From: an uncultured Gemmatimonadales bacterium
Lineage (GTDB): Bacteria > Gemmatimonadota > Gemmatimonadetes > Gemmatimonadales > GWC2-71-9
Reading direction: 5' to 3'
NCBI GenBank assembly: GCA_963798915.1
Contig: CAWCVB010000001.1
Location: 160,001 to 224,000, forward strand
Length of the DNA stretch: 64,000 bases
The notes under the pieces are model-generated. The model was not told where the DNA came from and did no database searches. It was given only the letters and a program-made list of their open reading frames with translations. Made by a program: the position numbers and the translations under genes. Positions 1,025 to 2,936 of this stretch are shown here, piece by piece (position 1 is the first letter of the stretch; each line of letters opens with the position of its first letter).

Positions 1025-2104
1025 CTACGTCTTTCGCCTTCCAACCTCCCTCCACTCACACCCTTCCGCGGAAATCAGGTACCGGTGCACCACCGTCCGC
1101 ACCGGATCACGATCGGCCTCCTGCTCGGTGACCAGCAGGGTATCGCCCTGGAAGCCGGTGAAGGGATGCCCGCCACCGTGCACCGGCACCGCACCATCCA
1201 CGCAGGCATGCTTCCGGTCCGCCGAGAGCAGCGAGAGCCAGGCCACGCTCTGGATGGCGTTGCCGTCCAGCACCTGGTCCATGTGCACCGCGGCGATCTG
1301 GCCGGTGGAGAGGCGATGCAGCTGGAACAGTCCGGACAGCGCCGAGAATCGCTCGGGAAACGGCGTCCCGGGAGCGGCCATCAGGGCGAGACCTCTGTCG
1401 GTGACGCCCTTGCGCCGCGCGACCGGCAGCTCGATCCGTTCGAGCGGTCGGCCGGCGGTGTCGAGCAGCACGATCTCGTTGCTGCCGGAGTAGCCGCCCA
1501 CAATGGTGTCGCCCCATACATCGAGGGCCACGATGGTGAAGATGCCACGGAGCGGCGGGCTCGCCTTGTAGGACGCAGGAAACGGGAAGAGCCTCCGGAA
1601 CGCGGTGTCCCCATCCCACCGGGCGATTCCGGTCTCGCTCCCCTGCTCCACGCCGCCGAACCAGACGGCGTCATTGCGCGCCACCACGTTGCGGAGGATG
1701 CCGGCATAGGGCACCTCGCCAATGCGCGCGCCGCTCGAGTCGAACAGGGTAAGCCGCCGAAGCTGGTCGTCGCCCACGGCAAATCGCCCCTCAGCCAGCG
1801 GCACCGCCTGGGTGGGCCCGCGAAACTCGCCCGGCCCGTCGCCCTTCCGGCCGACCACGTCGAGCCACTGCCCATCGGGAGCGAATCGCACCACCCGCGC
1901 CTGCGCCATGTCGGTTACGAGGTACCGGCCCCCGCCATCTTCCGCCACTCCACCCAGCTGGGCAACATATTCCGCTCCGCTTTCGCTCAGGACCACACTG
2001 TCAACCAGCGAAAGGGCGGGTCCGGTATCCTCGCGCGACCGGGGGGTGTCGCTCCCACACGCTGCAACGCCGAGCCCCAGGCTCACCGCGGCGATGAACC
2101 TCAT
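1025..2104 (-). CDS. Six-bladed beta-propeller lipoprotein
   Basis: MRFIAAVSLGLGVAAC lipobox and VVGRKGDGPGEFRGP motif; the ATG overlaps the upstream peptide stop (ATGA). Confidence 0.85.
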   Translation of the reverse strand: MRFIAAVSLGLGVAACGSDTPRSREDTGPALSLVDSVVLSESGAEYVAQLGGVAEDGGGRYLVTDMAQARVVRFAPDGQWLDVVGRKGDGPGEFRGPTQAVPLAEGRFAVGDDQLRRLTLFDSSGARIGEVPYAGILRNVVARNDAVWFGGVEQGSETGIARWDGDTAFRRLFPFPASYKASPPLRGIFTIVALDVWGDTIVGGYSGSNEIVLLDTAGRPLERIELPVARRKGVTDRGLALMAAPGTPFPERFSALSGLFQLHRLSTGQIAAVHMDQVLDGNAIQSVAWLSLLSADRKHACVDGAVPVHGGGHPFTGFQGDTLLVTEQEADRDPVRTVVHRYLISAEGCEWREVGRRKT

Positions 2105-2289
2105 CGGGGCATCGGAACGGTCCAGCGCCAACAGGGACAGCGGTAGGTGTCGTTGTTGCAGTCATCCATGCAGTTACCGCTGATATCCCGCCAGTGATAC
2201 TTCCAGGGCACGGCGGTGGTGGCGCGCGCTCCGGACGCAAGCCCCGCAAGCATCAGGACCACGACGGACAGCACCTTGAGATTTGCCAT
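2101..2289 (-). CDS. Small secreted four-cysteine peptide 2
   Basis: Strong SD GAGGAGG; signal peptide ending ARA; mature TTAVPWKYHWRDISGNCMDDCNNDTYRCPCWRWTVPMPR; paralog of 2302..2514. Confidence 0.85.
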   Translation of the reverse strand: MANLKVLSVVVLMLAGLASGARATTAVPWKYHWRDISGNCMDDCNNDTYRCPCWRWTVPMPR

Positions 2290-2301
2290 GTCCACGCCTC
2301 C

Positions 2302-2514
2302 TCAAACATTGATCCAGAATCCGCCGCCCGATATCGGCCAGCAGGGACACTGGTAGGTGTGACCGCAACTCGACACGCATTTCCCGTCCAGATCCCGCCA
2401 TTGGTAGTAGCCCGCCTCGAACGGAAAGATGTAGATGGGCACGGCGTGGAGCGCCGGCGCGAGCACACTGATGAGCAGGCCCACCAGCAGGAGGCGACGA
2501 CCAAGATTTCGCAT
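2302..2514 (-). CDS. Small secreted four-cysteine peptide 1
   Basis: Start overlaps the upstream stop (TAATG); signal peptide ending ALHA; mature VPIYIFPFEAGYYQWRDLDGKCVSSCGHTYQCPCWPISGGGFWINV. Confidence 0.85.
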   Translation of the reverse strand: MRNLGRRLLLVGLLISVLAPALHAVPIYIFPFEAGYYQWRDLDGKCVSSCGHTYQCPCWPISGGGFWINV

Positions 2515-2936
2515 TATTTCCTCGCTTGGGGAACGGTGAAGAGCTGCGCGGGACCGGCTTCGCCACTCCAGACCTCGCGGCCGGCGACGAGCAGCACGAC
2601 TCGCATGGTGCGGCCTTCGACCAGCCAGCCCGCCCCGGGCAGCAGGCCATCCACATCGGCACGTCCTGCCCGGAGCTGACGGCGCTCACCCTCGGTTGGC
2701 CTGGCGGTCAGGACCAGGCGAACCTGGCCGGGATGCTGCTTGCGCCAGGCTATCCAGTCGGGCAGGGTGCTGCCACAGGAGAAGCAGCGGGAGGGATTGT
2801 AGAACAGCACCGCAGTGCTTTCCGCGCCAGCCAGCTCGGCCACGCGCCGGCCATCGTCGAGGAGGAGGCGCCCCGCATCAGCGGGACGCCCGCAGGCGGC
2901 AGGGAGAACGGCGAGGAGGAAAAGCAGACGGCGCAT
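2514..2936 (-). CDS. Thioredoxin-fold CxxC lipoprotein
   Basis: Lipobox LPAAC; VLFYNPSRCFSC (strand then CxxC) followed by a helix and the strand VRLVLT. Confidence 0.7.
   Translation of the reverse strand: MRRLLFLLAVLPAACGRPADAGRLLLDDGRRVAELAGAESTAVLFYNPSRCFSCGSTLPDWIAWRKQHPGQVRLVLTARPTEGERRQLRAGRADVDGLLPGAGWLVEGRTMRVVLLVAGREVWSGEAGPAQLFTVPQARK

Follow-up and report, generated by a model that had tools for sequence, protein, structure and literature searches.

Operon of a thioredoxin-like lipoprotein, two Cys-rich peptides and a propeller

The window analysed here is a stretch of 64,000 nucleotides from an uncultured Gemmatimonadales bacterium (C1:160001-224000 of a 17-contig assembly of 3.3 Mb that is 84.8% complete). 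Close to its start, the listing of open reading frames (ORFs) and the sequence itself place four ORFs on the minus strand, in the order thioredoxin-like (Trx-like) protein, first peptide (pep1), second peptide (pep2) and beta-propeller. The first gene (2514..2936) encodes a lipoprotein of 140 amino acids (aa) with a thioredoxin fold, which begins MRRLLFLLAVLPAAC, has a signal peptide ending in LPAAC and carries the motif CFSC at residues 51-54. The second gene, pep1 (2302..2514), encodes an exported 4-Cys peptide precursor of 70 aa with a predicted mature form of about 46 aa that starts VPIYIFP..., and pep2 (2101..2289, from ATG 2289) encodes a paralogous precursor of 62 aa. The last gene (1025..2104) encodes a six-bladed propeller lipoprotein of the NHL type with the lipobox VAAC and a Cys pair, C310 and C358, in the numbering of its 368-aa ORF. 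Signal peptides and lipoboxes, here and below, were judged by eye.

The junctions between the genes are tight. The sequence TAATG at 2514 is common to the stop codon of the Trx-like gene and the start codon of pep1. The pep1 stop codon TGA (2302-2304) is overlapped by a Shine-Dalgarno box, GAGGAGG (2297..2303), that stands 7 nucleotides upstream of ATG 2289 of pep2, and ATGA (2101-2104) is common to the pep2 stop and the propeller start. Two of these starts are not the ones chosen by the ORF caller. For pep2 the caller took GTG 2295 (64 aa, 2101-2295), and we favour ATG 2289 because the GGAGG box lies 7 nucleotides before it. For the propeller the caller took TTG 2131 (368 aa, 1025-2131), and ATG 2104 is the likelier start because the N-terminus then reads MRFIAAVSLGLGVAAC, a lipobox. 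The G+C content of the operon's small ORFs is 0.75-0.78 at third codon positions (GC3) against 0.48-0.52 at second positions (GC2), as is usual in coding DNA. All four genes belong to one operon. The original prediction, which was made from this DNA without database searches, had described four tightly coupled genes at this place, with two small ORFs that share Sec-type signals and a Cys motif, a Trx-like CxxC lipoprotein and a six-bladed beta-propeller. All the junctions that it named can be read in the sequence, and the three kinds of protein proved to be as described.

Both peptides have an n-region with Arg or Lys, a hydrophobic core and an A-x-A-type cleavage site, and their four Cys residues all lie in the mature part. 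The spacing in pep1 is C46-x3-C50-x5-C56-x-C58, and pep2 is alike with x6 in place of x5. When pep1 was used as a query, pep2 was the sole other match in the 3.3-Mb genome (E 1.2e-6). Eight columns are invariant among 23 aligned family members: W39, D41, G44, C46, C50, C56, P57 and C58 in pep1 numbering. We also considered export of pep1 by the Tat pathway. Its signal, which is short and very hydrophobic, has an RR that reads HR in two relatives (P0008 and P0009), and Sec is likelier. Charges counted from the translations are about neutral for the mature peptides (pep1 about -1, pep2 about +1), and several relatives are acidic.

Ten relatives of pep1 were found in a metagenome and large protein collection at 51-64% identity (E 1e-22 to 1e-16), all of them 'hypothetical' or nameless and none with a Pfam domain. 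Within the genus, pep1 and pep2 are adjacent in seven of the nine other genomes (G001-G004 and G006-G008), and wherever the contig ends permit viewing, the order upstream propeller, Trx-like gene, pep1, pep2, propeller is the same in those seven. Both peptides are missing from G005 (90% complete) and from G009 (100% complete), and the module as a whole was not found in the latter. The peptide frames are open in eight species with invariant Cys, Trp and Gly residues. By the Nei-Gojobori method, the ratio of nonsynonymous to synonymous substitution rates (dN/dS) was 0.24-0.44 for pep1 and 0.11-0.70 for pep2, and it was below 1 in all 15 pairs for each peptide; the medians for the Trx-like gene and the propeller were 0.116 and 0.159. 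The peptides are coding sequences under purifying but relaxed selection, and judged by dN/dS they evolve 2-4 times as fast as their neighbours. When 300 other genomes of the class were searched with the peptide profile, only four partial matches came up (E 0.003-0.005), none of them convincing, and the window's peptide family looks genus-restricted. A sequence search of the PDB with the peptide profile returned nothing, and a protein atlas search with pep1 gave no usable match. In G003 and G007, the most divergent members of the genus, both peptides of the pair have five Cys residues and not four; since the number is odd in each partner, the two could be joined by an intermolecular disulfide.

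The AlphaFold2 (AF2) model of the Trx-like protein has a mean predicted local distance difference test score (pLDDT) of 82.5 and a thioredoxin fold. Its CxxC motif (C51-F-S-C54) lies on helix 48-54, directly after strand 41-46, that is, at the N-terminus of helix 1. A Foldseek search with the model returned StoA, ResA, Etrx1 and TlpA at E 9e-5 to 3e-3, with CcmG among the matches; StoA was best (E 8.9e-5), and the template modelling (TM) score for ResA was up to 0.60. There were 17 PDB matches with E <= 1e-3, and the matches listed are extracytoplasmic Trx-like proteins. The protein resembles ResA, StoA, TlpA, CcmG and Etrx not only in being structurally closest to them but also in having a membrane or lipid anchor and the CxxC at the start of helix 1. 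It differs from them in having no membership in their sequence families, no Pro inside the CxxC and, in the window's subfamily, no Pro at what, judged from the sequence, would be the usual cis-Pro position; moreover, no genes for cytochrome c or CuA maturation lie near the window's operon. No family of Pfam or NCBIfam matched it, those for thioredoxins and redoxins included, and a profile search of the PDB reached only E ~1. Orthologues in five genomes of the same genus are 82-84% identical. Among the 29 fetched relatives the CxxC is intact in 26, and its second Cys is present in all 29. Forty relatives collected with a wider profile also had no Pfam domain. Such names as they have are automatic ('hypothetical protein' at NCBI, from Gemmatimonadaceae or Gemmatimonadota), and two of them were labelled by JGI as 'predicted Fe-S protein YdhL (DUF1289 family)'.

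The model of the propeller (pLDDT 92.7) has 24 strands in six four-stranded blades, and the protein ends with the sixth blade. In a VIA-align search over 48,161 chains, NHL domains came first (Mei-P26, Z 24.1; Brat, Z 24.0). The longest structural alignment (311 residues, Z 21.1) was with 3s9j, a DUF4221 protein of Bacteroides, and other matches were peptidyl-alpha-hydroxyglycine amidating lyase (PAL, Z 19.7), NHLRC2 (6gc1, Z 19.0) and SOQ1 (7djl, Z 19.1). A profile of 62 propeller family members found NHL structures at E 1.9e-41, the NHL repeats of PAL at E 2.2e-18 and 4raa at E 4.2e-9, and the family has 13,390 representatives at E <= 1e-3. Invariant in the 62 members are D74, G94, G97, G99, P236, R240, C310 and D312, with C358 conserved in at least 90%, and the family has the motif GxGPGEF. 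PAL needs metal-binding His residues in its propeller. Since no His is found among the invariant or 90%-conserved columns of the 62 members, a PAL-like metal site appears unlikely here. A complex prediction for the propeller (residues 26-368) with mature pep1 (residues 25-70), which was run without controls, scored 0.02 against a mark of 0.32 and so counts neither for nor against binding.

The exported propellers of Bacteroides (3s9j of DUF4221, 4raa or BF0058, and DUF5128) resemble the window propeller over alignments of 311 and 297 residues (Z 21.1 and 19.5) and in being lipoprotein-type, multi-copy families. On the other hand, the window propeller stays under the DUF5128 cut-off (PF17170, 19.5 bits against 22.9), which neighbouring paralogous propellers pass at 31.3 and 36.6 bits. 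In Bacteroides, PF14055 (NVEALA) is a frequent neighbour of DUF5128 genes; it had no match in the window's genome or in any of 14 control genomes. The window's genome has 24 paralogous six-bladed propellers and 12 DUF5128 matches. About ten of the paralogues form an array (C1:145937-164257) that extends across the window start. Several paralogues begin with lipoprotein-type signals, and the majority lack Cys and have neither a Trx nor a peptide gene next to them.

Recurrence of the cassette in Gemmatimonadota

The profile of the Trx-like protein matched 33 of 400 other Gemmatimonadota genomes. The matches fall in two families of the same order (f1 and f2) and two of the same class (f7 and f8), with up to seven Trx-like copies in one genome. 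The 19 genomes sampled outside the class gave no match, so that in the genomes searched the cassette family was matched within one class of one phylum. We fetched 29 of these loci, ten of which were extended before the peptides were counted. A same-strand propeller directly adjoins the Trx-like gene in all 29, and 25 of them also have a candidate peptide gene, a small ORF whose N-terminus is signal-like and whose C-terminal part is rich in Cys. The order is Trx-like gene, peptide, propeller in 12 loci, peptide, Trx-like gene, propeller in five and peptide, propeller, Trx-like gene in eight. Because the trio stays together while the gene order is shuffled, the loci are good evidence of a functional linkage.

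The commonest Cys pattern of the peptides across the modules, the window's included, is C-x3-C...C-x-C. As a control, we defined a strict pattern as a signal-like N-terminus together with C-x3-C-x(2-14)-C-x-C no more than 15 residues from the C-terminus. Across 128.6 kb of module loci, 14 ORFs had it, each in a different locus. A six-frame search of the whole 3.3-Mb genome found it in three ORFs, namely pep1, pep2 and one on contig C6 away from the modules.

Two further modules lie in the window's own genome. The module on contig C4 (C4:28500-33500, local positions 1230-3473) has two paralogous signal-peptide ORFs with six Cys each (3231-3473 and 2871-3230), a propeller (1757-2992) and a Trx-like protein with the motif CLFC; its G+C content is about 55-60%, compared with about 65-70% in the flanks. 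The other module lies about 13 kb upstream of the window (C1:144001-160000, local positions 2042-4226) and combines a propeller at 2042-3139 with a Trx-like protein that has the motif CSTC (3075-3689; matched by the profile at E 9e-7) and with a signal-peptide ORF of 81 aa and eight Cys (3981-4226), after which comes another propeller. The peptides of both modules are unrelated to those of the window, with six or eight Cys and no C-x3-C...C-x-C pattern. Since modules of the same genome hold unrelated Cys-rich peptides, a conserved Trx/propeller pair travels with a variable Cys-rich cargo.

A locus on contig C5 was considered as a further module. It has a signal-peptide ORF with four Cys, a propeller and an exported protein of 172 aa that reads S-T-D-C where the CxxC would be; the probability from hhalign was only 7.6% and the wider Trx profile missed the locus, which we left as uncertain. 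The protein P0062 was considered as a fusion of Trx and propeller, and the extra 120 aa at its N-terminus seem to come from a start called too far upstream and not from a domain.

Taken together, the operon is one example of a self-contained cassette for the cell envelope that occurs in Gemmatimonadota. The cassette comprises a TlpA/ResA-like lipoprotein of the thioredoxin fold, a lipoprotein with a six-bladed propeller of the NHL type and one or two Cys-rich mini-proteins that are exported and evolve fast. The original prediction had expected homologous peptides and the same Trx/propeller neighbourhood to occur elsewhere, with no match to a characterised family. The peptides do occur elsewhere (ten relatives, seven of nine genus genomes, dN/dS below 1 in 30 of 30 pairs), as does the neighbourhood, and no family of Pfam, NCBIfam, PADLOC or the PDB covers pep1, pep2 or the Trx-like protein. 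PADLOC found nothing among eight module proteins, and limited searches of the literature found no description of the trio.

The genes around the modules were scanned as well, 19 ORFs around the window's operon (about 12 kb on one side and 11 kb on the other) and 117 ORFs within about 5 kb of 14 other modules. The statement of the original prediction that no standard enzyme for ribosomally synthesized and post-translationally modified peptides (RiPPs) is near holds in both sets: no radical SAM, YcaO, LanM, LanB or MNIO gene is among the 19 ORFs, and no known RiPP maturase is among the 117. No recurrent ABC exporter, outer-membrane exporter, DsbD/CcdA or DsbB was found among the 117 ORFs, in which no family recurs save integrases. 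An integrase, transposase or relaxase lies within about 5 kb in seven of the 14 loci. These genomes are rich in integrases; with 12-94 copies per genome, about 3-16% of loci would be predicted to have one close by, and it was observed in four of the five loci checked, which come from five genomes. In five of the 14 loci (L077, L078, L081, L084 and L086), mutually homologous tyrosine-recombinase genes lie within a few kb of the module. The window's own copy sits in a chromosomal propeller array with conserved synteny and not in an island.

The window's operon is flanked by paralogous propellers on both sides. The upstream one (3160..4245, minus strand) has no Cys pair, and its position is kept within the genus; the downstream one (2..754, minus strand) is a lipoprotein that scores 31.3 bits with PF17170 (DUF5128) and runs off the window start. 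Other neighbours are further propeller paralogues, three tandem Uma2 genes, a gene for an extracytoplasmic function (ECF) sigma factor, HEAT-repeat proteins and regulators. The Uma2 genes (putative restriction endonucleases) are paralogous and lie inside the propeller array (C1:144001-160000, local 9027-11518), and two of the three have near-identical N-termini. An AraC-like ORF was considered as a general part of the cassette, since it is present beside the C4 and the upstream C1 modules, and it is absent from the 14 other loci. The two ORFs (260 aa, C4 local 3765-4544, plus strand; 238 aa, C1-upstream local 937-1650, minus strand) are 26% identical (E 7e-13) and have a weak match to an AraC-type helix-turn-helix (PF12833, E 0.007).

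The DNA near the operon also holds tandem repeats. Four perfect or near-perfect arrays of G-rich 9-mers lie at 786-854 (GGCAGGATG, 7.7 copies), 4511-4576 (CAGGACGGG, 7.3 copies), 5537-5576 (CGGGATGGG, 4.4 copies) and 8387-8447 (GGGCGGGAT, 6.8 copies). At least two of them are intergenic, and the array at 786-854 precedes the downstream propeller gene, which probably starts at about 754, by 32-100 nucleotides, a position that could allow phase variation or the formation of a G-quadruplex. A heptamer array (GTCAACG, 17.4 copies, 6163-6298) lies in the 5' part of a 516-aa HEAT/tetratricopeptide-repeat gene (6094-7644), where it encodes VNGQRST-like repeat units; this gene follows the ECF sigma factor gene (4601-5347) and a likely anti-sigma gene (5351-6094).

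Comparison with known systems

The pairing of a Trx fold with an NHL propeller has counterparts in eukaryotes. SOQ1 is found in the plant thylakoid lumen, and NHLRC2 is mutated in FINCA disease. The window's pair shares with them an extracytoplasmic, membrane-tethered, TlpA-like Trx fold coupled with a six-bladed NHL propeller, to which the propeller model aligns at Z 19.1 (SOQ1) and 19.0 (NHLRC2). SOQ1 is described as having a TlpA-like Trx domain that is stably docked on the NHL propeller with the redox motif at the interface, a propeller proposed as a scaffold, a CCINC motif and a C-terminal beta-stranded domain with a Cys pair (bioRxiv 10.1101/2021.03.16.435614), and NHLRC2 (PMC6107167) is the animal counterpart of the Trx-NHL fusion. 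Here, in contrast, the two parts are separate lipoprotein genes, and no fusion of Trx and NHL in one polypeptide was seen: none of 44 Trx-like matches lies in an open frame longer than 335 aa, a result that covers these matches and not the longer fused forms in protein databases, which were not searched. Further differences are the motif (CFSC, or C-[FL]-x-C, here and CCINC there), a Cys pair in the last blade of the propeller instead of a C-terminal domain of the n-DsbD-like type, and the attached genes for small Cys-rich peptides, of which there are none in SOQ1 or NHLRC2.

The peptides themselves recall the cis-defensins. According to PMC11561630, which includes bacterial defensins, all cis-defensins have a cystine-stabilised alpha-helix (CSH) core, C-x3-C...C-x-C, they were found with the six-Cys expression CX(2,18)CX(3)CX(2,12)CX(4,17)CXC, and earlier work cited there had proposed two-disulfide CSH peptides in myxobacteria. 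The paper reports three phyla, and the passages found mention Gemmatimonadota, thioredoxin and propellers zero times each (PMC11561630). Like the cis-defensins, pep1 and pep2 have a signal-peptide precursor, a C-x3-C...C-x-C core near the C-terminus and diversity around the conserved Cys. Both have the CSH core together with a secretion signal, the latter judged as above. Unlike the cis-defensins, pep1 and pep2 have four Cys and do not fit the six-Cys expression, and the peptides are not cationic.

Methylamine dehydrogenase combines a Cys/Trp-rich light chain, a propeller heavy chain, a MauD-type Trx and the accessories MauG and MauE. Its seven-bladed heavy subunit and MauG/MauE have no equivalent here, since the window propeller has six blades and no haem or MauE-like gene is near. 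The system is not a member of the SOQ1/NHLRC2 group, not a six-Cys defensin and not a known RiPP or PADLOC system.

Proposed mechanism, alternatives and meaning

We tentatively favour the reading that the Trx-like lipoprotein and the propeller would be a Trx-NHL pair, split over two genes, that handles disulfides and has fast-evolving peptides of its own as clients, although we rate it at somewhat less than an even chance. The original prediction had proposed two-disulfide mini-peptides (signal, antimicrobial or metal-binding) that a dedicated oxidoreductase folds, with the propeller as receptor, immunity protein or maturase, and the results support this interpretation in part. As their sequences suggest, pep1 and pep2 would be exported by Sec and cleaved after the A-x-A site. 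In the periplasm their four Cys (C-x3-C...C-x-C) would be paired into two disulfides, which would link a short helix with C46 and C50 to the C-terminal strand with C56 and C58, as in the CSH core of defensins. Crossed pairing of this type typically needs proof-reading beyond oxidation, and the Trx-like lipoprotein would be the obvious catalyst. By analogy with SOQ1 and NHLRC2, it might pair or proof-read the disulfides while docked on the propeller, which would serve as a client-binding scaffold, and the two lipoproteins would be a two-gene version of the fused unit. Fast divergence of the peptides, copy-number variation with a patchy spread, and the mobile elements often found nearby in other genomes make a secreted effector, whether antagonistic or signalling, more probable than a housekeeping function. 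A classical cationic bacteriocin fits poorly with the near-neutral charge and the missing outer-membrane exporter. The full proposal, in which the pair is a periplasmic disulfide-maturation machine, a split SOQ1/NHLRC2, whose clients are hypervariable Sec-exported Cys-rich mini-proteins in an often mobile cassette, is rather doubtful as a whole.

Several observations weigh against a disulfide-handling pair with peptide clients. A peptide was not detectable in four of the 29 modules. The first, normally nucleophilic, Cys of the CxxC is gone in three of the 29 Trx-like relatives. Most relatives have P-x-E-[LF]-[VL] before the last strands, with Pro as the consensus there in a 27-sequence alignment; the window's protein and its orthologues in the genus read GRTMRVVLLV, with no Pro at this usual cis-Pro position, which was assigned from the sequence only. 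No redox partner of the CcdA/DsbD or DsbB type was among the neighbours scanned. Finally, a Trx-linked propeller with a Cys pair of its own may itself be the client of the Trx-like protein.

That last point leads to an explanation in which the Trx-like protein makes, breaks or isomerises the C310-C358 pair of the propeller, and the peptides are ligands, regulators or passengers. The pair lies in the last blade of the Trx-linked propellers (AC[VP]D and CxW), and of 30 propellers from loci with a Trx-like gene, 25 have a Cys in the C310 column. Among the 24 paralogues of the window's genome, both Cys are found in only three (those of the window, C3 and C4) and neither in the other 21. Together with the conservation of C310 and C358 in the propeller family and the four of 29 modules that have no peptide, this speaks for the propeller as the substrate. 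However, the peptides accompany 25 of the 29 pairs despite the shuffling of the order, no Trx-like gene adjoins the C3 paralogue, which has the Cys pair, and the Trx-adjacent propellers of the upstream C1 and the C5 modules do not have the pair. We consider this explanation quite unlikely. A cassette of the bacteriocin type, in which the peptides are Sec-dependent disulfide toxins, the propeller an immunity or sequestering protein and the Trx-like protein a disulfide accessory, is unlikely as well, although less so. Tandem peptide pairs resemble two-peptide bacteriocins, and dedicated Trx-like accessories are known in bacteriocin clusters. The peptides evolve 2-4 times faster than their neighbours and are entirely different between modules; the spread is patchy (33 of 400 genomes, up to seven Trx-like copies, absence from G009); and mobile genes are found in seven of 14 loci, with an integrase close in four of five against the predicted ~3-16%. 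All of this would suit toxins, but there is no recurrent outer-membrane exporter or C39-peptidase ABC transporter, the mature peptides are near neutral and several relatives acidic, not cationic, and the window's copy belongs to a chromosomal propeller array of conserved synteny. Moreover, the 340-aa propeller is held at a dN/dS of 0.16 while the peptides diverge, which is not the co-varying pattern of specific immunity.

It is highly unlikely that a peptide serves a propeller enzyme as its small subunit or cofactor-bearing partner while the Trx-like protein acts in assembly, or that the propeller installs cross-links other than disulfides in a periplasmic RiPP. The architecture of the trio resembles the mau genes, aromatic residues flank the Cys in many peptides (CPCW, CWWFC, CWC), and one Trp is invariant in the window's peptide family. 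Yet the propeller is of the six-bladed NHL type and not seven-bladed, it has no invariant His or other obvious catalytic set, no gene of the MauG, MauE or radical SAM type is near, and the peptides vary too much in sequence to keep a fixed cofactor site. The small ORFs could also be chance frames, since GC-rich DNA yields long spurious ORFs and 60 ORFs were listed in 6 kb. This is effectively refuted by the comparative data, with frames kept open and key residues invariant in eight species, dN/dS below 1 in all 30 pairs, GC3 and GC2 of the coding type, a Shine-Dalgarno box with translational coupling, and a strict pattern that occurs only once elsewhere in 3.3 Mb.

If the reading of a split Trx-NHL pair with peptide clients is true, the cassette would stand for a new product class: bacteriocin-like or signalling peptides that are matured in the periplasm and are unseen by current genome-mining tools. 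RiPP and bacteriocin miners would miss such peptides, which lack leader and maturase signatures as well as family models and whose sequences are hypervariable. It would also be the first genetically tractable clue to the role of Trx-NHL proteins, including the product of the human disease gene NHLRC2. The pairing of Trx with NHL is conserved from bacteria to plants (SOQ1) and humans (NHLRC2), and an operon that holds candidate clients makes the client question testable. Gemmatimonadota are abundant in soils and barely cultured, and a mobile, fast-evolving secreted-peptide cassette would, if the reading holds, be a plausible handle on how their members interact.

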